A stretch of 58,710 bases of DNA, the filler included, from Sphacelaria rigidula (lineage: Eukaryota): assembly GCA_964200075.2 (NCBI GenBank). It is 5 parts of 5 records of this genome, joined end to end, with 100 filler letters (N's around TTAATTAATTAA, not from the genome) between each part and the next. Parts side by side here need not be neighbours in the genome. Positions count along the whole stretch, not along the records: positions 11,764 to 23,426 come from CAXNAA020004651.1; 4 more parts are not named here. The stretch is one strand, 5' to 3'. A program made the translations under genes and the position numbers. Of this stretch, positions 2,741 to 23,972 are shown one piece after another. Positions within the stretch are counted from its first letter, which is position 1. Every line of letters begins with the position of its first letter. The notes below the pieces were generated by a model. It ran no database searches, was not told where the DNA came from, and saw nothing but the letters and a program-made list of their open reading frames with translations.

Positions 2741-4886
2741 GAAAGGTGAAGCACCACCAACAATAAAAAAGACAAGGGGACGGCTATACTGATACTTGAC
2801 CTGTTAATACGGATTTCATCCGAGTTTACGGATTACGTACACGATGCGGTTTGAGCTATCAAGTTCCCTAGGCTGGTGGTATCAGGGAGGTGATGATAGG
2901 GTGGGTGATGAGGGACTTAGTCAAAGTATCCACTAATAATTACCAAGGTGGTGATGATATCCAGGGTAGACAAGCTTGTCGGGTTAATTGCACTCCCAAA
3001 TGTATCGAAGTGTTATTGAAATGGGGGTGAAATGCGGTCGTTGAGATTCCCCGTAACACCGGACTGGTCGAGCGGTAATACAGTCGCCATTAACATGACA
3101 CATTATTCGACGAACACAAGAATAAGGAACATGGCAGATGATATTTGTTGTCTGCTTCGCCCCGACAGGGGGCGCTATTGTGTATCGTATGACCCATGCA
3201 ACGCAGTTCTCATTGAATGAGGCTACCATTAGTTCTCGTTCATTTTGGCGAGTTGACAAATGAAACAACGTTCGCACGACGCGAGCAGTCGAGCGGAATC
3301 TGAATCCGGCGGTGGGTAGAAACCCCATGGAAATTGACTATTTCCGAAACAAAACAATTACAGAATTGACCCGAAATGAAAGCAATTGAACCCGAAACGA
3401 CTCCCAGTTTGAGCCAACTTATCAAACAGACGTTTACATTGGTACTGAAACTAGGCGCGTACGAGCTGTCGCGCGGGAAAATATATTTTGCTCAGCGGAG
3501 AAGCAGATCTTGTGTGCATGATTTCATTTCTACCGGGTGGGGTATATTAATCAAAGATGTTTTGTTGAAAAACAAAGGTCCTGGGTGCAGGTCCAATTCG
3601 TCCGTATCCGAGGAGTTTTTCGACATCCGTCGGCCCGAAACTGAGCATATCTCCTCGCAGCTTGGGTGAGAAAAAAGTAGGTTTATTTCGATTTTCTCAT
3701 TTAATTGTGGCCAAAATGTTTCGCGTCTTCGACATAAAGTTGCCCCAGGACGGAAAACTTCCAAATACGGTGTAGAGAGAAAAAAAAAGACCCCTTCGTC
3801 GAGCTCCAAAATCTTGACCAATGTTTACCTGAAACACGATTTTCTCAAAAACAAGAGATTTATTAGAATAAAACAAGTGAACTGATGGTTTGATCCGTCT
3901 AAAACAGCTTTCTAACGATACTATTCATATCTTGTGAAGATACGTACCGGGTTTGGCAAAACTTGAAACTTGATATGTGGATGGTCATGTTTTTTAGTGA
4001 AAATTGTGTTGCATGACCACACAGCAGGCACACGGATTAGCTCAGTATTTACCTCAGTTGGTCACAGGGGAAGGTCACATTCCCAATTCCAGAGGAAATA
4101 TAAATGGGTGGGGTACTCTAATCATTCCCGATGATAATCGGTCTGGTGCCAACCCTGCAGGCGTGCATCACCTGGGGATATTGTACACGGGGGTGGGTAT
4201 ACTCCGTACCCCGCCACTATTTCCAAAAGCGCAGGGCTGATCGGGAGCTCTAGTGCACCTCAATCTTTAGTCGAGTTCTTGACAGGCTCACGACCTCTGA
4301 AATGCTTCAGTGGTCAGCTTAGCCGTTTCTGCGCAGATGAAGGTGCGCAACACAGCAAGAAAGAGTCGAAAGTGTTCCGAAATGACATCCCCTTCAACCT
4401 AATCCGATAGAAACGTCTGCGTCGAGGTCGAAATAATCCCCCCCCACCGAAAATTGCTGCGTCTTGAAAGGGATGCGTGGTAAATGGTCAAACGACTAAG
4501 GTAAGCAACAAGTGAGTACGCTCCCCCCACACCGAAAATTACAAGTCGGCGTGAACATTGGAAGAGGGACTAGACGACAGTGCCTTCCAATACTGTGCCT
4601 GTACCCACGCGCGGCATGCCATTTGTTGCCTCTCTGTACGGCCTGCCGAGTGAGATCTGACAGTCTGAACCGCTGAGCAGTCCATCATCCCCCAGTCTGC
4701 CATCATCCGGCCCCTCAGAGGAAGTGATGTTACAATACCCAACCGTCGTGCATACAACTGGGAAATTCATTGCCGGGATGTACGTTATATACCACCCCCT
4801 AAATAACACTTCTGGTTGATGACCTTCTGGGTCTCAACAACTCATGTCTTATGGGGGCGTTGAGACGTATTTCGATCTGAAACCTA

Positions 4887-5567
4887 CGAGGAAGACCATT
4901 TTTTGTGGGGACCAATCTGTATTTGTACAAATATGAGGATTTCAGCCCGTGTACAGGACATTTTTCCCCGTGCAATGATTTTTCGTCTAGCTGTGAGAAG
5001 GTCAAACCAATTCGCCGATTCTCTGGACGTTGACTTTTGCAAGGATAGGTCGAGTAGAGTATACTCAATTGCGGGGTATTTCGAAAGTCGTACTTGAAGT
5101 ACACAAATTGAGGGTAGGGTTTTAGGGATCGCTTTCCAGTTATATTTTGGGTACGACTCCCAACACTCTACCCTAATTTGAGTACCCCAAGTACGTATTT
5201 CAAAATATCCCGTAATTGAGTATACTCTACTCCATCTGCCCCTGGACTCTTGGTATGTCACATTTATGCCCAAATCGAGACACTCCTGAATATGCGTGTC
5301 CAAAAAGATATGTGAGCCCCCGGTCTGTCCCTCGCGCACACATATTCGAGCGTGTCCCGATTTGAGCAGGAGTGTGATATATCAAAAGTGAACGTCCAGA
5401 CAATCGGAGAATTTATCTGGTATTCTCACAGCTAGACGAAAAAGATTGCCCACGGGACTGGGGTTCGGTGAATCATTGCACCGGAGAAAATCGCCTGTAG
5501 ACGGGCTGAAATCCTCAGATTCTGTACAAGGGCAGATTGGTCCACATAGAAAATGGTGTCATCGCCG
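4887..5567. mobile_element. Foldback non-autonomous element with ~150-bp inverted arms, flanked by TA (Tc1/mariner-like target); hosts MITE A copy 2
   Basis: 4896-5039 is the diverged reverse complement of ~5383-5556 (e.g. gaggatttcagcccgt / acgggctgaaatcctc and tttcgtctagctgtgagaa / ttctcacagctagacgaaa). Ends read TA|CG...CG|TA. Confidence 0.7.
5040..5244. mobile_element. hAT-type MITE family A, copy 2 (205 bp)
   Basis: Collinear with 13788-13993 over its full length. TSD GACTTTTG (5032-5039) / GACTCTTG (5245-5252). Confidence 0.88.
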
Positions 5568-11763: not shown

Positions 11764-12732
11764 CAATTGTATCATCTACTCTCAATCTCACGAAAACACT
11801 GTTATGCATGATCATGAGTACACCCCCTTTACGGCATCAATTACGTTTTGGGAGCCACTGTAGAAATGCCGCATACGATTGCTGACTGCGAGCCGTAAGA
11901 AGCGACATGCGTTTATTTTTGCCTCCGAGTTTTTTGCCCCCCCCCCCCCCCCCCCATCACCCGCCACCGGTGTGAGTACTACGGCACGCAACATCACGAG
12001 TACACGACCCGGCAGCCGCCTCCCTCCTCCAAAATATAGTTTGGCATGGTGTGTAGCGTTTTGACATTTGCCAGGGACGAAAACAGGTGAGCAGCGGTGT
12101 CGCGGCGTCAGCTGCAGTCACACGGATGGAGTAAATTACAAGGAAGGGGGTCCCCCGGCAAGATGAGAAGATCCCCGAGTTAGGAGTCGCGGTATACATG
12201 AGGCTGAGAAAGCCTTCTTTGGGCGACTGCACATGAACGTGGGCTTTTCGGGCTGCTCTATGCACATATTTATCTCGCTCTCGCGAACGGAGACCAACAT
12301 ACGTCATCCTTCCTCGATCACCTCCCCGTTGTGCGAGCTTATCGCACGAAACGAGACTGTAATCGTTATTGCAAACAAAACATGCAGCACTTGCCGTGTT
12401 TGATGGACTTGTTCTTGTTGAATCTGATGAGGAAGTGAGCAACCCTTGCAGTGCACTTCACCATCTGCTCGTCGAAGGCTATTCACAACCCGACCTCGGC
12501 AGCCTCACTCCACGCCCGATTCAGTATTTCTTCCAGTCTCCTGTGGAGCGAAAGGGGGTGAGGAGGGTGTGTTCTGGGTGGGTTACGGTGGGGGATGCCA
12601 GCGTCACGCGGGTTCTGCGCACAGACATCCTTGCATCCAAAACGAGGAGAGGCCGGCGGTGGCAACCCCGGCACAGATGTAATACGAAGTCTGCGTCTCG
12701 GTCTCGGTCGAGCTCTCTCACCACGAAGCCAA

Positions 12733-12831
12733 GGGGGGAAGGGGGACGCGTACTCGCTTGTTGCTTGCCTTCGTCATTTCACCATTGACCACAAATCCCT
12801 TTCGAGACGGAGCACCGGTATCACTCCTAAT
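12733..12831 (+). repeat. Dispersed ~90-bp repeat family; other copies at ~42880-42951 (+), ~4455-4528 (-) and ~46916-46950 (-, cut by a gap)
   Basis: Shared core gcgtactc.(c/t)ttgttgcttgcctt.gtc...accattgaccac..atccctttcgagacggagcaccg. Confidence 0.8.
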
Positions 12832-13787
12832 GAAGGTGATCATTATGTTTCTTGCATACATTACGAAACCCTTCACATATCTTATCCCCGTCCTGTTTGG
12901 CCATCTGGGCCAAACACGGAAACACGCTGTCGCGCCCCCCTCCCCCCACACATGTACCCACCCACGCTCTCTAGAAGTATGTATACTTGATATGTGCTTT
13001 TCCGTCGTAGCCCTTCTCCCTTCTCCGCGGCAGGCCCCGAGGTGCGAGATGGAAGAAGCGCGACATGAAGAGGAGAAAAAAATCGCGCGGCATGGTCTTT
13101 CAGACATGCAGAAAGTTGTGCTTCCCCCCCGTCCCCCAATGCATGGCCATCCGCGGGAGCCTCGTCATCCCCATCTGGAGTACAATTCCCAGCGCTCCAT
13201 AGACATGTCCTTTCCGGAACCCGCCCTCTGGTACACTGGTGTTCCCAAGCGTTCTGGTTTTCCGGCGGTGCCGCTGTTCTCGTTTTTGCTGCTTGCCGTC
13301 ATGCCCGGTCGGTTCTTCCTCCGCGGTGCAGAAGGCGACGTAGTCATTCGTCTGCAAGCCAACAACGGAACCAGTGGCAACCATCCATGGGAGTTTTGCA
13401 CCATGAATGGGGCGGCAGAGACACTTCCCATGGCTTCACACTGATTGCAAAAGCCGCCCGCAAAAACAGTGGCGGCATGCCAAACATTCATAGGTCCGCC
13501 GTGCAGAGATCACCAGTAATCACATCACGAACATGTATGAAGGGCAACAACGACGCCCGGAAGGTTGAACGTGTTGCGTTATGCGGATAACAAGCCAATG
13601 GAGGGAGGGGACGATAGATAGCAGAGATGCATCGCGCATGTCGCTTCGGTACTTCTCCCGACGTACCAGGATCGGGATACCCGACCGACGGCGATCAATC
13701 CCAGTTGCCATTACGAGCCGAAGCGTTGTCAAACGCATCAATTTGTCCAGTCTCCAACCAGAGAGTTTCAGTGTAAATAATATAATC

Positions 13788-13993
13788 CAAGGGCAGGTCG
13801 AGTAGAGTATACTCAATTGCGGGGCATTTTGAAAGTCGTACTTGAGGTGCACAAATGGGGGGTAGGATTTTAGGGATCGCTTTCCACTTCTTTTCTGGGT
13901 ACGACTCCCAACACTATACCCCAATTTCAGTACCTCTAGTACGTCTTCCAAAAATACCCCGCAATTGAGTATACTCTACTCGATCCGCCCTTC
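13788..13993. mobile_element. hAT-type MITE family A, copy 1 (206 bp), inside a piggyBac intron
   Basis: ~40-bp TIRs (caagggcaggtcgagtagagtatactcaattgcgggg... / ...ccccgcaattgagtatactctactcgatccgcccttc). Perfect 8-bp TSD ATATAATC at 13780-13787 and 13994-14001. Confidence 0.9.
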
Positions 13994-16747
13994 ATATAAT
14001 CACATGCTGGTCCAACACGTGCCCAGGCAAACGCATTGGTCCCAAATACTACATCTTTTGTTTGGTTGTAATCTATCGCGATTTGAATATTTCCCTCCCT
14101 CGGCGCTACTCCCCAACGTGACAGGATGAGCCGAGCTCACCCCGGCACACAGGGCAGCGTTAGAAAAAAAAAACGCCGCCAACAACGCAGCGTTTGTTTG
14201 TCGCCGTCAACACTGAACGGCTTAGGCACCGCTGGATGCCGAGCTATACTCCACGGTAGGTGATCTCTTCCCTATCCTGAGCCCGTTTATGACAAACAAT
14301 GAACCTAATGGTCGACGAGGGATGAGACAAATCCTTGTGACATGATAAATTTCAGCGATATTCGACAACAGTGGTGTACGAATCGTGCTTGGTTGCCCAA
14401 CACTGAGTAAAACTTCGGAGAGGTTCCTTAGACCAACTTTCATGGCAACAATGCTCCTTTCTTTGAGACCCGTATTTATTCGAAATGGGGGGGACTCCAG
14501 TTCGCGACCTCAAAATCGGGGGAGCTGTTTTATGGTACAGACAGTAGCACAGAGTTGTGAAACAGTTTTGTACACAGACAGTTTTGGCATGAGTGTTGCA
14601 CACTCGTGCATGAAGTTGAAGAGCATGTAGGCGGCGAGTAATCCTTGTAGGACAGTGTCGTACCGTGGCACCCTAGGGTAATCTTGGCCGGACACCCTAT
14701 CAATTCAGTACATGATAATGCCGTGTGATATAATAGTACATCCTGGCACAGTTGGTATCGCGAGCATAGTGAACAAACTATGTGCGCGAAGAACTCAGTG
14801 GCGCAGTACCGTACATCACCGTGCAAGCACAGCGACAACAGACGAGGAGAGAACAGCACCGTTCGTGATAGCGATATATATGGCAGCGCCGTGCAGCATA
14901 AAATATAACCATCGCCGCAGGGCACAGCGTCAACACTTATTATCCGCTTCTCAAACCCTCTGCGCTGTCACGAGGCTGTCTTTTGCCGCGGTAAACAAAT
15001 ACCAAACCTGCGTAGCCTACCATTGTACGTTAATGCACGCACGGCCCCTGAAAAACATTCGGGGGAAGTCACGATCTCGGAGCGCTTTCAGTCGTGTCCT
15101 TTCGGAATATCGGGGGAAGTCGTTCGGAGATCGTGACACCCCGATCTTTTCCCCCCGATATCGTCAAAATCGGGGCTTACGAAGAACGTTGCCGGTTCCC
15201 CCCCCCCCCCCCCCCCACGATCTTAAAAAAAAGGTCGAGATCGGTGACTGCCATAGTAGGTGGGCTCACATATTTCACGATGAGATCGATCTCCTCCGGG
15301 GGGAACATGATGTCGAAGAATGACAGCACGAGATCCTCCACGCTCCCTTCGACCACAGCTTTATACCCCGCGCGGTCCACCTTCGGCAGGCGCTCCAGGG
15401 TGAACTCCGACAGGGTGAAGTCCGCGCTCCGATGCCGCCCCGCTTCGCGCTTGGGGCATGTCTCGTCTACTTTCAACCCCTCTGTGGTCCACTTCGCCGA
15501 ACCCACACCATCGGAATCGCCATCAGGGTCCACGTTCCCGTCGCCGTCATCATCGTCACGCTCGTCGTCGGCGTCGCCCTGGTGTTGGTGGATATTGCGT
15601 GTGTCACGCACACGGGGCAGAGAGGAAGGGAATATCGATGATGGAAAACGAAACCGGTGCTGTACAGTCCACACATAGGCGCAAGTCATATACAATGCAC
15701 GATAGAAAGCTGCATATGGCCCAAGTCTTTTTGATGTCGCATTGGAAGCAAGGAAAACAGGCAGCCCCACGCTATCTGTACTTCATATGGCCCTCACCTC
15801 TTTTCCATCATTCTGCCTAAAGCACGCGCACACACACACGCGCACACACACTCAAGGCACGGTACATGCAGACAGTGCGGACAACACAGGCCGCCGGTAA
15901 TGCACAGAAGCGAACGGCGACGCTTGACGAACTTCGCTGTCTTCCTGCGATCGCAACCTCGGCTTTTTCGTATTATGCTATCAAAATTTCTGGCATAATT
16001 CAACCTTAGCGTAAATATAATAGCGTTTCAGGAAGTAGCATACAGCAGATCCGTGCTGGCTCAGTTTGTTTGGCCCAACGTGCACGCACCCGCCTTGCGT
16101 GTCTTGCCCCGATCACAGCACCCGAGTGTAACTGACGTACCAGAGAAGACGCAGTACACAGCTGCACAGCCGTTACTTGGCGATTTTTGCAACCTTTCTT
16201 GGTTTGGACAGCACTTTGATCCCACCCCGAATCTGTGAAGACCGTTTCACTCGAGACGAAACGGCCAAGACACCATGAAGCGCTCCGCGAGAAAATATAT
16301 ATTTCACCTTGAGTTACCCCTACCTGTGGGAGGTGAGTCAAAATGCTGGTCTGCTGCAATGTTTTGGGTGAATCACTCTTTCATCACCGACCGCCTGTCT
16401 GATATACGTGAATGCTGTGGAATAAGTCATTTGCCGATACTGATCACAATATAAAACCGGCAGTCTGATCGATGCTAGCATCATAAGTAAAGTTCTGAAT
16501 ACCGCCATAACACCATAAGCATAGAGTGGTGGGTGGGTCTGTATCCGGCCAAAAATGGTAATGCTCCGAAAAGTGTGGATTTCTCAACTGCTCCTGAAAG
16601 TGCGAACGCCTCGTTTTCGAGGTTTCTGCCAGTACAAAACTACGCCAGAGATGTTCGAAGGCATCAGCCATGCAGCGAACACCCTACAGCCGTATCGAAC
16701 ACCCGTATCCTTTAATCTCACCTCTACCGGTGTGTTCTTCGTAGGCT

Positions 16748-18045
16748 TCATCCTGGCGGCCGTCTGTATACTTCTTGGTACGGCTTCTCGGCAATTTTTG
16801 AAGCATCCTTCAACACCGCCGCCCACGTTTTAGGGATCGATGCCTGCCCGCCCCGCGTCTCCAGTTCGTCCTCCCCACCCTTCAACTTACCGTCAGACTC
16901 GTCGTACGGTTCGGCCTCTCCATTATCGGCGTCTTCACTGTCTCCCTCTTTTTTCTTCGGCTTTCGCTCACGTTCCAGTCTCAACCCGCCGACATCCCAG
17001 TTCTTGTGCTTCCCACAAAAGAACGTACCGGCCTTGAGACGGGCCGTGCATCGCTTCCCTTTCCGTGCGCCTCGCTCAAACACCGTTGTGCACCCCGTGC
17101 CTTCGGTATATTTCGCTTGCGGAGCCACGCTAGGGGAGAAGTGAGGCTGCGCAGGTAACGGCGGTGCAAGGAGAGGCATGTGCAGCAATGCCTCCACGTT
17201 GAGCTCGTGCCGGTACCGCTTGGGTTTCGGCAGCAACAACCCCTGTACAGCGCCACTTATCACTTCTGCCACTCGCGTTTCCGCCGCGGCATTCAGGAAC
17301 AAGACTTCGAAATGATTATGTTGCGCGAGCTGTGCTGCAGTACCAGATGCGGTTTGACGACCGCGGCTAACATCATCTGCGGAACAGTACCTTAGATGCA
17401 CCCACTGGTTCTTTTCATCCAGAAGAAAGTAAAGCCCATCCATGGACCCATTCGGACCGCTGTACAATTTCACCGCATTTCCCTCGTGATGTGGCTCCCA
17501 CACCATAACATTCACGTCCAAAACAGCACTGGCAGCTGCGAGCCACGGCATTTTCAGCCGCAGACCCTCACGTTCTGCAACCCACTTCAGATGCCTCCTA
17601 AACCATCCGATGGTGTCCCTCTCCTCCTCGATATGCTCGTGTTCGAAGGTGTCCATGAGAAACAGGTGCCTCGCCATGTTTTTGCCGTCTTCTGTGATGG
17701 CATGTCGGCCTCGATTTGCCTCCTCGTCAGGGGTGTTGTACAGTACAGTACCGCATATGGCTTGCATCATGTACTCGCATACGGCTTTTTTCAGCTTCGC
17801 GACGAGCTGTAGCATGCGCCCATCATCGGGCACCGGCGTATTGCGGCCAAGTGCTGCCGTCAGCAAGGACTCATAAGCGCAGTTTCCGAACGGTCTCACA
17901 GCTTGGCGCCAAGCCGTTGGTGCTGTGGCCGATTCGGCGGCCCCACGGTCTTGTTCTGCAAGCTGCTCAAAGAAGCTCCGGTCCTCCGCGCGTACCGTTT
18001 TCACGATATCAGACCCGTGGTTTGTATTTGGTGGTCCCGGGAACA
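16748..18045 (-). CDS. OTU-like cysteine protease domain + C-x13-C-x10-C-x2-H zinc finger + basic/acidic tail (large internal exon; gene possibly decayed)
   Basis: 432-aa open frame. OTU-fold motifs in order: VRPFGNCAYESL (Cys codon 17879-17881), LKKAVCEYM, LAAASAVLDVNVMVW, VHLRY and HNHFEVL (His 17312-17314). Zinc finger CTTVFERGARKGKRCTARLKAGTFFCGKH at 17006-17092. The frame starts at a cag| acceptor (18045), not an ATG. Confidence 0.7.
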
Positions 18046-19807
18046 CTGTCTATGCCACATCTATGATATCTATCTTTTCCTCGGCGGCATCCATGCTTGT
18101 GCGTGGATGGGCTGCATGACTGACAGGGGTGGGCCGAGGGCTGAGGGAGCCATTTCGTACGAGACTGTAACCCACTATGTTTGTAGTAAGTCGGCACGCC
18201 TCCGCACATGTTGTTTACTCGCAGTGCTGAAAAGACCGATGGGTCGAACAAAAAACAACGTTCTTCGCCACCGTCGAAAATAGGCACCTTTCTTTTTTTC
18301 CGTGGTTCATTTGCGCGGGTCTGAAAAACACGCCTTGGGCAAAAACGTGCTGCGTGGGAGCTGAAACTATCAACCATATGTCCTTCAAAACCAGCACCTT
18401 CAAATCAGCACTTTTCCATTGCTAGTCCCAAAAGGGCTCAACGCCTCCGCGAAAAAGGGTGGAAAGCATTGGATGATGAAAAATGTCCCGATTTCGCAAG
18501 CACGCTTGCATCTGCTGTGCATTCAAGAGCGGCCCAGACAGCATCGCTCAGGAGGGAGGAGGAGACGCATGGACAATCAAGGTGCGTTCATATATAGACA
18601 GGCAGTTCCTCTCGCTAATTTCAATGGCAACAGTGCTGTATGCAACGAGTTAGGGCAGAATCCGTGCAGCTCAGGGTGAAAATCACCCTCCTCGCTGAAA
18701 CCTGATCTCCGGTGTCATGGGAGAACATGGCGCTCGATCTACACGACCAGGAGAGATACGGAGGTATGTTTCACCATGTAGACAACGTAAACTTTCTGTT
18801 GCAAAAGGTTTCACTGAAATCCATCGGTGTCGAAACATTTACAACTGGACTGAACTTGAAAAAACTTTAAATTTTGCTCCGCACCAGCACATGGGTGCAG
18901 TAAAGAGTCCCCTTCCTGCTCTACAAGCTGTCCACCCCAGTACAGTACAAGCGCGTGCAGCACAACACCATGCACCCTAGTGTAGCATAGAACCGCATAA
19001 CTTCGTTGAGTGAAGTGTAGTTCAGCACAGAGTGTTGTGCAGCCTGTAAAGTGCCATGTTCGGGTATGACCAGTGCCGAGTGCGGAAAGAGGCAGTATGT
19101 ATGAGGGCCTTGTCGAAGCCATCCGCATTCACGATGAGCGACGTGCGGCCGTGGGTCATGTGTAATTCTGCGGGTTAGGTACTCCATGAAAAAAAGTATT
19201 GATCCCACCTGGCGCCTTTTTATTGCGCATTGATGGCATGTTGGGAACCCGCACTCGGGTTCGGACGACCCCCTACGAGGAGCGAGATTATCCGACTCAT
19301 CAACGACACAGATTTCGAGTTGTGAGCTTGGACAGTACATCAGTGCGACGATCACATGCAGGATCATGAAATTAGATGGTGCGGCAACCAAAACTCTGTT
19401 ATCGTTGGATAGTACAGCATGATGAAAACCGCTCGATTGAAGACGTCTGTATTAAAAATAATTGACGTACGATCCCACACGCATCCACTCCCCCGCACAT
19501 TCGCCGACCATAGATGTGGAAGATCCCCAAGACCCACAGTTGGGGTGCAACGTCTGGAGCACTTTTAAGACGCCGGCCGGGGCAGACCGAACGTGAGTTA
19601 CGGCACCGCAATCGGTCTCAAGGTAAGAGCACCACAATACCCCTCGTGCACTATTATCGTGCGTAATAGAAGTGCTGAAGATCCAGCTCATCCGACTGCT
19701 TTCCTCTTGATCCCGCCGATGACTGTGATATTTGAACTCAATTGAGGATGCCTACGTTTCGGGATATCATCATTTCACACGAACCCGTGTCCTTTACAAT
19801 CTAAAAA

Positions 19808-22040
19808 ATGAAGAAGACTGCACGACTGATACGTTGTGCCAATCTATCATTTTCTTGTCTATTTCGGGCAGGCAATGAAGTGTCTGCACCACTGTCGCCT
19901 TCATCCCGACCGACACATGCCACACCCGCGGTTGAAAGCAGATCTCCCCTGACGCACTCCGAACGTGCAGCACCGGTTGAAAATGTGGGGGACATCGCCG
20001 AGGGTCACACCGGCGAACGAGTCAAACCGCAAAAGTGGCTGAGTCCCCGTTCCTATGGTAAATGTACGGCGACTGTGCTGTTCAGTGCGCCGGAGACGTC
20101 CTTCGCGTCCAGTGATGGCGCATCTGTAGAAAAGCAGGGGTTAGAGGGGTGAAATGACCATCCGAGTGCAGAAGGTAGTAACTTCAAATTTCGATCGGCC
20201 GGGGAAGGCGCGACTTGTGAAATCTCCATCACCTCGGCGTCAGAAACCAATGTACGGGAGGTGTCACCAGGGAATCCGCCGACAGTACCTCTCAAGGAAG
20301 TGGGTGTCACCCCCCGCAAAATCGGGAGACCCACCGGTGGTAGAGTCCCGGAGGTACAAAATCCAACTCCATCGGCCAAGGCCAAGAGAAGACGTATACC
20401 GCCCAAGTCCGGCAGGGGCACACCTGCTGGCATACGTGCATCGAGGCGGAAGAGAACCGCTACGAATAAGCCCGAGGTTGACAGCGTATGGGGAGCGTGG
20501 CATGAACAACAGCAGGCGGTGTTGCAGCACAGAAACGGCGTGAGGGAAGATCTGCCGCTGGCAATACAATCTCCCGAGGAAGCGCCGATGTCCGTATTCC
20601 CGTACAACTCCCGATGTCCGGTTTCGCGGCTGTGCTTCGCCTGCCATCGACCAGGGCCCGGGGAAGTCAATGTCTGGCGTCATCTTGGCGCGGCGCGAAT
20701 CACGGAGTCTCGACAATTTCTGGAGTCGTGTGCGGATGACGATGATGTACGCGCGGCTGCGCTTGTGAGAAACTACCAACCAAGTTTAGATTGCTTGTGC
20801 AACCTGCATAATTGTTTTTGGAGCTCCATCGAGCGAGACAGGATAACGAGTTCTAGGCGAAAGGCGAATTCCCTCCCTCCGGTTAGCTGCACACCCGTGA
20901 CCGTTGGTTTAACACCCCCCTACCCCTGCCGAGCCGGACGTTGTTGCAGAGGTACAGCAAAATAGTGATTGCGGCCGTTGAGGAGGGGCGTTTACTGGGA
21001 CTGGAGGATGTTCAATCCTGGCTGACCGAAGCCAGAACCGCAGTAAACGCCCGGGCTGTTCTAGACAAGCGCACCAGGGAGCAAGCGCTGAGACCGGTCG
21101 ATGCGGTGGCCGGGGACGGCGCAGTCGACGCCAAGCTTGGGAAGATGAGCGGGGTTGATGCAGCTGTACGCCATGGGCGACACAAGTTCATCTATCTCGT
21201 CCCTTCTGTGGTGGCGCCCGAGGTAGCCATTGCGGCCGACGTTGAACTTCGCAACATGCGTACGAGGGTACGGGAGTTGGAGCGTTCTGTCTCCCGCCTC
21301 ACCGCCGAGATGGAGACTGGTCAACCTATTGAACACGCACTCCAGCGTGTGACAACTGTCGTTTCGGAGGAAGATCAACAGGCCGTGGTCATAGCGGCTG
21401 GGTCTATTGTCGGGGTGGACATCGAAAGTGCACACAAACTGAGGAACGTATGGGGGGTTAGGGACCAGAAATACGCCGCCGGCACTGTTGGCATTGCTCA
21501 GCAGTCGTGCCATTTGAAAGTGTCGAGTGATGATCCGGAGTTGCTTTTTCCGACAGTAGATGAAGCAAGGAGCGGTAGGCAAGGGGATTCTGTTCATGCG
21601 CCTCGCACCGCTGGGGCAGATGATGTCGACATGTCGGCGGCGCGGGGTGGCGGGGTGGGTTTGATGGGCACCGCAAGCAGATGTGGTGGTACGGACAAAA
21701 TAGTGTGGTACCTCTTCGGCTCGTCCGTATCACTAGTTCGTTTTTACTACTGTCTCTACTGTCTCAATTGTTGTGGTTACCATGATCGCTGCTCAAGCAC
21801 TGTGATGACGGATCTTCTCAAGACGGGGCATGAAGTGAAATTTCCTACTTCAACCAAACATGCGGGATATTCATCCATGTGCAATACAGTATGCAATGAT
21901 TTGTACGTACTCGCTCACCATTTATCGCAGGGCAAAACAGTTTTCCAGCACAAGGGATGGTCAGTTTAACGAGGAACAGCTCATCCTGAATGTCAGGGTA
22001 TCTTGATCTCAGCTTCAGGCGATGGTATTTCTCTTTTGCA
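19808..22040 (+). pseudogene. Decayed long ORF resembling the N-terminal part of an Academ-type DNA transposon protein
   Basis: ORFs 19808-20152 and 20261-20965 are one frame broken by a single TGA (20150-20152). A frameshift near the C-runs at ~20915-20945 joins ORF 20941-21969. The end reads SVSLVRFYYCL...TVCNDLYVLAHHLSQGKTVFQHKGWSV*RGTAHPECQGILISASGDGIS, similar to the Academ-type pattern P..L..F...L / si.qDl.y......k.pKH.gl....Tgs.....iL...G..iSY. No catalytic region follows. Confidence 0.45.
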
Positions 22041-22451
22041 CTGGTGGTTTTGAATCTCATGTCTCAGGCCACTTCGTTCCCTTCCATAGGAGTAAAACCA
22101 GGGGGCCGGCTTTCACCGATTCTGAAAGAACCGAGTTCAAGCCGGATGTAAAGAGGCATGTTTATGTAACCGTCTGCGTACGGGCTCAAACATCCTCCCC
22201 CCTGACTGCGGCACATTGCCAGTTCCCGCAGTCAGCCCTCCGGGACTTTTCCATCAGATTAGATGGGCCCATCATTGTACTACCCTTCCTCCATGTATGC
22301 CGCGATCCATAACACCCCCTCTCAGGCCTAGGGTTGACAAACCCTGGGGCTGAACGTGGTTCGACGATGGATCGCCGCTTTACCACCTTCCTCGTCCTCG
22401 AGTATTCGGCGTTCGTGTCGTGTAGCCGTCGATCTTAGTCCGTTTTGCCGA

Positions 22452-22713
22452 GTTAGACCACGTGGGGAATTTAAACACCGTGCAGAACAATCTCAAACAG
22501 TCTCAGCAACTCCCGCTCTTGTAGATCTCTCTGCCGGGTTAGACCACGTAGGGAATTTGAATATCGTACAGAAACGATCCCATCCCGTTCGGAGAAGTTC
22601 TTGACCTGTTGACCGCTCTGCTGGGTTAGACCACGTAGGGAATTCAAACCCCGTACAGAAACGATCCCATCCAGTCCGGAGAAGTCCTTGATCTTGTTGA
22701 CCGCTCCGGGCTG
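22452..22713. repeat. Tandem repeat, ~87-bp unit x3
   Basis: Units start gttagaccacgt(a/g)gggaatt at ~22452, 22538 and 22625. Units 2 and 3 also share cgtacagaaacgatcccatcc...ggagaagt.cttga. Confidence 0.85.
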
Positions 22714-23125
22714 TTCGTAAACCGTTCGCGGATCTTGGTACATCGGGGAATCTACCGCGCAATTGACCCCCTTTCTGCTCGAGATGGTATATCAGATGGA
22801 CGTGGCCTGGTCTGCGGTTGATATAATTCCCACAAGGCGTGAAATGCATCCAACTGTAACGCAGTGTATTACAATCTCCATGATTCAAGAGTCACGAGGG
22901 CGGTGTCTGGAAGAAACATTCTCAGTCATCAACGGCGTGAGAAACGATGGAACCAGTAACATGAATAGCAGCGCTTCACCAATATAACGATAGCGAACAA
23001 GACAAATAAAGGGGAAGGAGAACGAAGGGAACAGCAATATAATCAGACAAAACAGGTTCACGCGCGGGCATTTGGCCAGGGTATCGCGTGTCGGGGACAG
23101 CCAGGTATAAGTTCATGGACTCCCA

Positions 23126-23328
23126 AGGGAATTCTGACTCCTTGTCAACCTGTTCGGACAGCATGGGAATTCCTGGATTCCTGTCAAGCTGTTCGCACGC
23201 GAAAGGGAAACTCCTGGCCCCCTGTCAACCTGTTCGAAAACATATGGGAAATCCTGGATCCCTGTCAACCTGTTCGCGCGCACAAGGGAAACTCCTGGCC
23301 CCCTGTCAACCTGTTCGAAAACACATGG
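23126..23328. repeat. Minisatellite, ~40-bp unit x5 with alternating (81-bp dimer) structure
   Basis: Core cctgtcaacctgttcg recurs every 40-41 bp, preceded alternately by gggaa(a/t)tcctggat and gggaaactcctggccc. Confidence 0.9.
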
Positions 23329-23972
23329 TCTTGACATCTTGAGCCTTCGTCCTCGCCCATTTTCCTGTATGCAATCAAATCCTGCTTGTTCGCTGTATGG
23401 TGCAAGCATATATATACATATATATANNNNNNNNNNNNNNNNNNNNNNNNNNNNNNNNNNNNNNNNNNNNTTAATTAATTAANNNNNNNNNNNNNNNNNN
23501 NNNNNNNNNNNNNNNNNNNNNNNNNNGGGTATCCACGCAACTTTTGCGCTATTTCACGTGTCTGGGCTGCGTGTACCTGTGTTGCAACACTGAAATAAAG
23601 GCTAGGGAGTGATTAGTCACGAGTCGACCCATCATACTAAAACCAAGTAATTTTCAGACGAATCATTAATTGTCCGACCCTTGATTGTTTTGCTCTGGGA
23701 AGCAAAAAAAGACGTTATCTGGGCAACGATCTTGATGGATAATACATTTGTTCACAAAACATAAAGCACGAACCCAAAAATCGACGGGTGTAGTATCAGG
23801 CATCGGTAAATCAGGTCTGCACATGGTGGTGTTGAATTGGATGGGGATACGTCGGTACACTAGCAATCTTTGAAAACCAATGCAACAAGGGCATATAATT
23901 CCACAAAGATAAAACAAAAACATGGAAGCTCAACTGCATAGTGCTGCCTTCGCGATGCCGACAATATCTCGC

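Follow-up and report, generated by a model that had tools for sequence, protein, structure and literature searches.

An OTU-like domain and a zinc finger upstream of, and probably fused to, a piggyBac transposase in the brown alga Sphacelaria rigidula

The OTU-like exon and the transposase exons

The DNA stretch analyzed here (the window; 58,710 nucleotides from assembly GCA_964200075.2 of Sphacelaria rigidula) consists of five unrelated contigs joined by N spacers, of which only positions 11764-23426 belong to the contig under study, C4651 (CAXNAA020004651.1). On its minus strand, this contig carries a 433-codon frame (16751-18049) with GNC and HNHF motifs and a zinc finger, followed by three co-oriented exons of a piggyBac-like transposase (15578-15270, 13351-12987, and 12540-12395), an arrangement that the original prediction, made from the sequence alone, described correctly. 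At the family level, these parts lie within a single mobile unit and are joined in a single transcript.

Copies of the element were sought in the same fragmented, 244 Mb assembly and are named by contig (C4651 being the window copy); all copy counts are lower bounds. Homologous proteins are given P numbers, among them P0036 from Ascophyllum nodosum. Four of the six sequencing runs listed (X1, X2, X5, and X6) were aligned to the window at 80% likeness. X1, X5, and X6 come from one study and are denoted RNA-like, their RNA nature being guessed from the record (none is registered as RNA); X2 is DNA-like. Statements on joints and inserts in the runs refer to those listed. The features of the element are as follows:

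18426..18436, minus strand: 5' terminal inverted repeat CCCTTTTGGGA and 5' boundary of the element; the flank here is TGAG, not TTAA
18312..18436, minus strand: first 125 bp of the element, common to short non-autonomous derivatives (409 first-look candidates, 40 scored)
16722..18094, minus strand: exon 1, with the ATG, OTU domain, CCCH finger, acidic linker, and phase-0 donor GAG/GTGAGA (from the copies; RNA-like contigs end or join at 16721)
17291..17926, minus strand: predicted OTU-fold cysteine protease domain (Cys codon 17881-17879, His codon 17314-17312)
17006..17092, minus strand: C-x13-C-x10-C-x2-H zinc finger (from the sequence)
16885..16891, minus strand: donor G/GTAAGT of the original prediction, located within the coding exon
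16799..16801, minus strand: codon 432 of the model, TCA in the window, a stop in other copies
15579..16721, minus strand: intron 1, GT..AG, phase 0 (joint in X6 record 28; not conserved in C17498)
15270..15578, minus strand: exon 2 (309 nt, phase 0 at either end), where the transposase-like part begins; collinear with P0036
12987..13351, minus strand: exon 3 (TNDY...GIVLQMG..RLP...W), with a TGA at 13102-13100 in the window; P0036 match at E=9e-11; joint in X1 and X5
12395..12540, minus strand: exon 4, first catalytic Asp (AFDEQM), GC donor, with a TGA at 12485-12483 in the window; joint in X1
11823..12394, minus strand: intron 4, broken at about 11823; the window copy lacks exons 5-6 and the 3' end

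The link between the two parts is seen in a 755 nt contig of X6 (record 28), in which positions 16721-17148 (letters 1-429) are followed, with zero letters between, by positions 15271-15577 (letters 430-736); contigs of X1 and X5 end at the same point, 16721. The donor involved, GAG/GTGAGA at 16722/16721, is in phase 0 in all 12 copies that cover it, including the divergent C17498, C16557, and C20208, and matches the phase-0 acceptor at 15578, which is also present in the divergent C17498 and C16557, so that exon 1 is joined to exon 2 directly and in phase. Exon 2 opens at a CAG acceptor and has no ATG, as predicted originally. The proposed route between the exons had to be replaced: the donor at 16891/16890 is present in the sequence but is in phase 1, is GC in C17498 and C16557, and is read through by contigs of X1, X5, and X6 as part of a continuous coding region. 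No bridging exons are needed given the direct joint, and the coding-like pieces near 15815-15740 are intronic: they show no similarity to the divergent C17498, and the DNA-like run reaches a depth of 480 there, compared with 2.2, 2.9, and 0 for the three RNA-like ones. Routes that start at the 16891 donor and pass through micro-exons (candidates of 15, 16, and 39 nt in intron 1) were tried and rejected because the frame is never restored and the RNA-like contig joins directly.

Downstream, the joint between exons 2 and 3 (13351/15271) is present in X1 and X5, and that between exons 3 and 4 (12543/12991) in X1; in two intron bins, the depth is 0-3 in X1, X5, and X6 versus 440-480 in X2. Where the transcript letters differ from the window, they agree with the family consensus at 26 of the 27 sites checked (of 40 listed), which lie in exon 1, exon 2, exon 3, and 5' positions; hence, the transcript derives from a copy other than that in the window. 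Among 33 candidate RNA-derived proteins, none spans the joint between exons 1 and 2.

The consensus derived from the pile-up of copies comprises exons of 1374, 309, 365, 146, and 469 nt that read in a single frame (phases 0, 0, 2, 1, and 2); exon 6, taken from the decayed C4999, continues the frame and carries its own stop as well as frameshifts. Three Asp motifs (AFDEQM, AMDNFF, and GVDVADQ) are found in this family model, only the first of which is present in the window copy. PF13843 (DDE_Tnp_1_7) is matched above the cut-off on five other contigs. A Cys-rich C-terminal tail is recognizable by sequence across two frames of C4999 and in two Ascophyllum proteins, P0036 and P0053. The window exon 1 is 94.8% identical to the family consensus. 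Comparison against C17498 yields 88/68/129 differences by codon position over 269 codons, highest at the third. The GC donor of intron 4 (12395/12394) is kept in the consensus and in C17498.

The window copy itself is dead and 3'-truncated and cannot make the protein. Apart from the stops in exons 3 and 4, its exon 1 contains a TAG at 18052-18050 (codon 15) and a 1-base deletion near 16765, because of which the window frame apparently ends with RRPPG and a stop. Three other copies (C15066, C21035, and C18225) extend past the break at 11823 into exon 5.

Element ends and copies in the assembly

The 5' boundary is placed by seven other copies, whose similarity to the window ends at 18432-18441; TTAA lies directly 5' of CCCTTTTGGGA in five of eight copies, the window copy being among the exceptions. 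In other copies, the 3' end is TCCCAAAGGG followed by TTAA, which is present at all three 3' ends. The terminal inverted repeats, CCCTTTTGGGA ... TCCCAAAGGG, are about 11 bp long and imperfect, starting with CCC and finishing with GGG as is characteristic of piggyBac. In both copies that have both ends, C2853 and C4531, TTAA flanks each end and the enclosed sequence includes the OTU and transposase exons. Measured from TTAA and CCCTTTTGGGA to the matching end and TTAA, these copies span 10.1 and 10.4 kb and retain exon 1, exon 2 in whole or in part, and the beginning of exon 3; the catalytic exons are missing. In C6124, this 3' end is connected to the last catalytic exon, and a full element of about 13 kb was summed from the overlapping C11162, C21035, C18225, C4999, and C6124. 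The element 5' end lies upstream of the OTU exon in eight copies, each with unrelated flanks; the many copies with unrelated flanks reflect past mobility.

The order of the two parts is constant. The protein of the OTU exon matched 15 contigs including the window (22 matches) and that of exon 2 matched 12; in all 10 contigs that bear both exons, they are on the same strand and in the same order. Of the five contigs with the OTU exon alone, two (C3928 and C26095) stop within exon 1 and one (C8837) within intron 1, and the other two (C20208 and C863) have less than 1.4 kb of sequence remaining. Exon 2 is alone on two contigs, both interrupted in intron 1: C20675 ends there, and C9394 breaks off and continues upstream for about 6 kb in unrelated sequence, the break itself bearing no terminal repeat. 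C16557 retains the 5' end and the last ~60 codons of exon 1, the OTU domain being deleted. A possible element end within intron 1 was rejected: a 9/11 match to the terminal repeat at 16565 and a TTAA at 16712 are not adjacent, and copies align across both. Because no element end lies between the exons and both ends enclose both exons, they belong to one mobile unit. The predicted co-occurrence and the shared terminal repeats with TTAA around both exons are thus borne out at the family level, and nothing that would separate the protease-like part from the transposase was found, save the truncated C9394 and the deletion in C16557.

Short non-autonomous derivatives consist of the first 125 bp and approximately the last 500 bp of the element. 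Among 21 loci examined of the 409 candidates, the 3' part is also present in 19, and 14 of those 19 are 608-673 bp long.

Two observations on the copies stand apart. In the last 650 bp of C2853 and C4531, an open frame of 213-214 codons runs on the opposite strand from the 3' end; it is broken in C6124 and may be due to chance or else represent a second, tail-to-tail gene as in PiggyBac-1_Ec32 of Ectocarpus (see below). In X2, contigs over the element have a depth of 360-510 beside others at 23-25; depth does not equal copy number, and this disparity hints at a young, near-identical subfamily collapsed by short-read assembly.

The predicted OTU fold and homologs in other genomes

A structural model of 17231-17992 was built from a 27-row alignment (predicted local distance difference test score 83.9, predicted template modeling score 0.82). 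In this model, Cys38 opens the helix 38-48 and His227 lies in the strand 226-233. The top Foldseek match is OTUD1 (E=2.9e-5), and all five PDB matches at E<=0.001 are OTU-type by title. A VIA-align search of 48,161 chains gave Otu2 at Z=10.6 (root-mean-square deviation 4.0, 135 aligned residues), and all 21 rows at Z>=8 are OTU-type. Likewise, all 18 matches at E<=10 in a profile search are OTU proteins or OTU-bearing viral proteins, the best at E=0.02; single-sequence PDB searches gave nothing significant. Thus, the domain as modeled adopts an OTU fold in which the Cys and His occupy the elements expected; a predicted fold shared with OTU proteins is not by itself proof of activity. Of the two predicted domain assignments, the transposase one stood, with DDE_Tnp_1_7 found on the five other contigs and in P0036 and P0053, whereas for the window protein the OTU assignment is not reached with Pfam. 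Compared with OTU deubiquitinases (yeast Otu2, OTUD1-3, and nairovirus OTU), the modeled domain appears to share the fold, the Cys at a helix start, and the His on a strand, but shows at most 19% identity, has about 100 extra residues, and falls under the Pfam cut-off.

At two further OTU signatures, the Asp of the Cys loop and a polar residue two positions after the His, the window reads FGNC and HFE, respectively. The Cys motif is present in 12 of the 19 homologs scanned, six others being fragments that lack the region and one (P0008) lacking the Cys, and both the Cys and His motifs are kept across homologs only 17-37% identical to the window domain. The finger gives a weak zf-TRM13_CCCH match in P0001 (E=0.029, under the cut-off) and is missing in several homologs. 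An Atlas feature search with residues 70-310 of P0001 retrieved OTU clusters from large DNA viruses at 0.93-0.94, and a viral fold search retrieved baculovirus VP80 and giant-virus OTU proteins; a viral origin of the domain is shown by neither search.

The homologs come from a profile search of 1.84 billion representatives, with 34 matches, for 21 of which clusters were looked up; P0003 and P0004 match copies of the Sphacelaria genome itself and were excluded from the independent homologs. The named homologs relied upon are from Ascophyllum nodosum and Pylaiella littoralis. Many homologs share the order of OTU domain, optional finger, YDSDG-like motif, KIPE..Y..A helix, and then, often, a Val at the point where the donor would be read through. 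Two Ascophyllum proteins, P0036 (CAM9438324.1, 1161 aa) and P0053 (CAM9820384.1, 1314 aa), are full-length NCBI models in the fused form, with an OTU-like N-terminus, the finger, and DDE_Tnp_1_7 (E=1.6e-27 and 1.3e-26, respectively), and they diverge from their unspliced cluster mates at the position of the joint between exons 1 and 2. P0036 and the family model are collinear throughout, at 31.5% over 1087 columns (E=9e-142). Judging from these sequences, the OTU-finger-DDE fusion is conserved in at least two brown-algal genomes, and the originally proposed single transcript fits both these proteins and the X6 contig. A word-based search for fused proteins of 759-2165 aa returned none; this blank was a miss, given that P0036 and P0053 exist.

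Two further groups of relatives were noticed. A distant, heavily decayed piggyBac family is present on C5256 (3024-9935), with TTAA followed by CCC at 3024; behind this end come, in order, a weak trace of OTU (E=0.044), a finger (E=0.01), and exons of the transposase. The P0024 cluster has 32 members on long ENA contigs, several of 438-439 aa, which suggests a recently amplified relative in another genome.

Known systems, competing explanations, and further features

The element shares with the piggyBac superfamily (PF13843) the CCC...GGG ends, the TTAA duplication, three Asp motifs, and apparently a C-terminal cysteine-rich region, and differs in its length of about 13 kb, the ~1150 aa product, five introns, and the N-terminal OTU domain and finger. 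By comparison (here and below, articles are cited for their accessible text), the means for piggyBac are 3.3 kb for the element and 500 aa for the transposase, and fused domains, mostly N-terminal, occur in 4.6% of piggyBac clusters (PMC13461360); neither OTU nor protease is mentioned in the text of that article, whose Supplementary Fig. 4 and one further file lie outside the text covered and may list OTU. PiggyBac-1_Ec32 from Ectocarpus (9969 bp, with a spliced transposase) is similar in being brown-algal, with CCCTT-AAGGG ends, TTAA, a length of about 10 kb, splicing, and short non-autonomous partners, one of 648 bp; it differs, in a comparison by description only, in having two tail-to-tail genes (PMC12477816). 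This element may be an unrecognized member of the same lineage; OTU or peptidase is named nowhere in the main text or five supplementary files of PMC12477816.

Beyond piggyBac, Ginger1 elements similarly combine an OTU domain and a DDE transposase in one polypeptide and bear introns, but belong to an integrase-like superfamily, occur in animals, and have a Gypsy-like integrase core, CCGG/CCGT targets, and a C-terminal protease (PMC2836005); the element described here has a PF13843 core, TTAA targets, and an N-terminal protease-like domain. In Helentrons, an OTU-like protease is fused to the mobility protein, which is a rolling-circle Rep-helicase, without a DDE core or terminal inverted repeats (PMC6431247). 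In CSB-PGBD3 and SCAN-PGBD1, an N-terminal domain is spliced to a piggyBac transposase, but these are host genes that have become fixed, and their added exons lie outside the element (PMC5381638), unlike the present case, where the extra exon lies inside the ends of a mobile unit; neither OTU nor protease occurs in the accessible text of that article. OTU serves purely as a filter term in the text available of PMC5751038, and no protease is named in that of the Dada paper (PMC3706591). A pairing of OTU with piggyBac was not found in the literature searched, with Repbase and most subscription journals outside its coverage.

The best explanation, and in our judgment the probable one, is a brown-algal piggyBac lineage with a single six-exon gene that encodes a protein of about 1150 aa, composed of an OTU protease, CCCH finger, linker, DDD transposase, and Cys-rich C-terminus. 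piggyBac transposases act by DDD cut-and-paste into TTAA, and the fusion transposase would move its own element in this manner as well as mobilize the short non-autonomous derivatives in trans. The tethered OTU domain would remove ubiquitin in cis, from the transposase or from chromatin or repair proteins at the donor and target sites, and such action would prolong or ease transposition. This is also the role in transposition proposed for the proteases of Ginger1, which carries either OTU or Ulp1 (PMC2836005). For the present element, we consider the chances of this function to be evenly balanced.

Several findings weigh against this explanation. No whole autonomous element was found on one contig of the assembly. 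The joint between exons 1 and 2 is covered by a single contig, from runs of one study in which the RNA nature is a guess. Pfam cut-offs are not reached by any window segment, and PF02338 is not matched in the window protein or P0001; the match in P0005 (E=0.0067, 17.4 bits) falls short of the 23.3 cut-off. In the window and P0001, Phe replaces the Asp that precedes the Gly-x-Cys loop in nine of the 12 homologs with the Cys motif. The third Asp is missing from P0036 and the second from P0053, and both are automated gene models. A distant family on C5608 has no detected OTU domain in about 7.8 kb upstream; three further distant contigs offered less than 2.6 kb upstream for this search. Finally, codon 432 is a stop in seven of 12 local copies.

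The nature of this recurrent stop, six times TAA (once with a 1-base slip) and once TAG (aligned across a gap), bears on an alternative in which, in the lineages with the stop, one spliced transcript yields two proteins, that is, a free OTU-finger protein and a transposase that arises when codon 432 is read through or when translation restarts at an in-frame ATG (MKP...) located 17 codons further, still within exon 1. The stops fall in three separate parts of the tree, and codon 432 is the sole stop in the five-exon consensus and in the 335 exon-1 codons available for C17498, whose downstream exons stay conserved; the close copies, C17498, C20208, and P0001 all retain the MKP Met. However, this Met is Ile in C16557, codon 432 is a sense codon in five of the 12 copies, in P0001, P0036, and the homologs from other species that reach this point, and C17498 has stops in exons 4 and 5 and is thus dead anyway. 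Furthermore, the 26 codons after codon 432 are conserved as protein (17 identical; changes by position 8/2/8), which suits read-through or plain fusion better than restart. We regard the two-protein scheme as doubtful; the stop itself might mark dead non-autonomous lineages, read-through, or restart. An alternative code with TAA/TAG read as Gln was dismissed by inspection, there being no other in-frame stop in the five consensus exons, and a literature search for read-through in DNA transposons found nothing relevant.

Viral papain-like proteases cut their polyproteins, and it is conceivable, if rather unlikely, that the OTU domain similarly cuts the linker, for example, after L-x-G-G, to free a transposase of ordinary size. 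The ubiquitin C-terminus has the motif LRGG, which is resembled by ELKGG in the window, ELRGG in C17498, and ELQGG in P0001; by eye, a di-glycine follows the YDSDG-like motif in several homologs, and the N-terminal position would suit release. The motif is nevertheless missing, again by eye, in P0005/P0036, P0015, P0027, and P0034/P0053, and the best fold matches are isopeptidases, with the self-cleaving tymovirus and arterivirus proteases lower, at Z <=5.3. Alternatively, the domain could be a passenger or binding module that was captured, is catalytically spent, and plays no part in transposition. This would account for the Phe that the family has instead of the usual Asp, the Cys lost in P0008, the OTU deletion in C16557, and the movement of short derivatives without OTU; we find it distinctly unlikely in view of the Cys and His motifs maintained at such low identity and the in-frame joint at the matching place in Ascophyllum. 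Finally, a piggyBac could have landed by chance behind a host OTU gene, as a one-off exon trap resembling CSB-PGBD3; piggyBacs can serve as exon traps (PMC5381638), and the window copy lacks both a TTAA at its 5' end and a 3' end. This scenario is refuted, with a negligible residual probability, by the 5' ends upstream of the OTU exon in eight copies with unrelated flanks, the ends that enclose both exons, and the lack of an end inside intron 1.

If the probable reading, a single fusion protein, is correct, its significance is that ubiquitin- or SUMO-type proteases, which have been recruited by several unrelated DNA transposons, namely, Ginger1, Mutator, and Helitrons (PMC2836005), would have been recruited independently, here at the opposite terminus and in the superfamily best equipped with assays and structures. 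Standard excision and integration assays with a one-residue control could therefore show whether the tethered deubiquitinase helps transposition, a question that bears on piggyBac vectors. Unnamed brown-algal gene models of 1100-1300 aa would then be transposons, with an OTU family that escapes Pfam. A bolder proposal, which we advance as improbable, is that a brown-algal piggyBac clade carries its own deubiquitinase along with a gag-pol-like switch at codon 432, between a free OTU-finger protein that acts on host ubiquitin signaling, made where the recurrent stop is present, and the transposase, made by read-through or restart from the one spliced message.

The remaining features of the contig are insertions in intron 2 and sequences outside the element:

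14062..15264, strand not assigned: nested 1.2 kb repeat in intron 2, missing from four close copies; X2 joint 14061/15265
13788..13992, strand not assigned: nested 205 bp element in intron 2 with 42 nt inverted arms

The 1.2 kb repeat abounds in the genome (883 first-look candidates, of which 40 were scored), and some copies of the element have it where others do not. Outside the element (20056-21966, 22440-22693, and 23127-23324), there are overlapping frames of up to 360 codons and two tandem arrays with 87 and ~41 bp units; a Pfam search of the long frames there gave no match. The 205 bp element has a second copy at 5040-5246, in another contig of the window; tandem repeats similar to its unit lie in intron 5 of C18225 and C4999. 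An inverted copy of the 5'-end motif lies in intron 4, best kept in C18225 (3439-3460) and located in the window at about 11845-11862, some 25 bp before the break.

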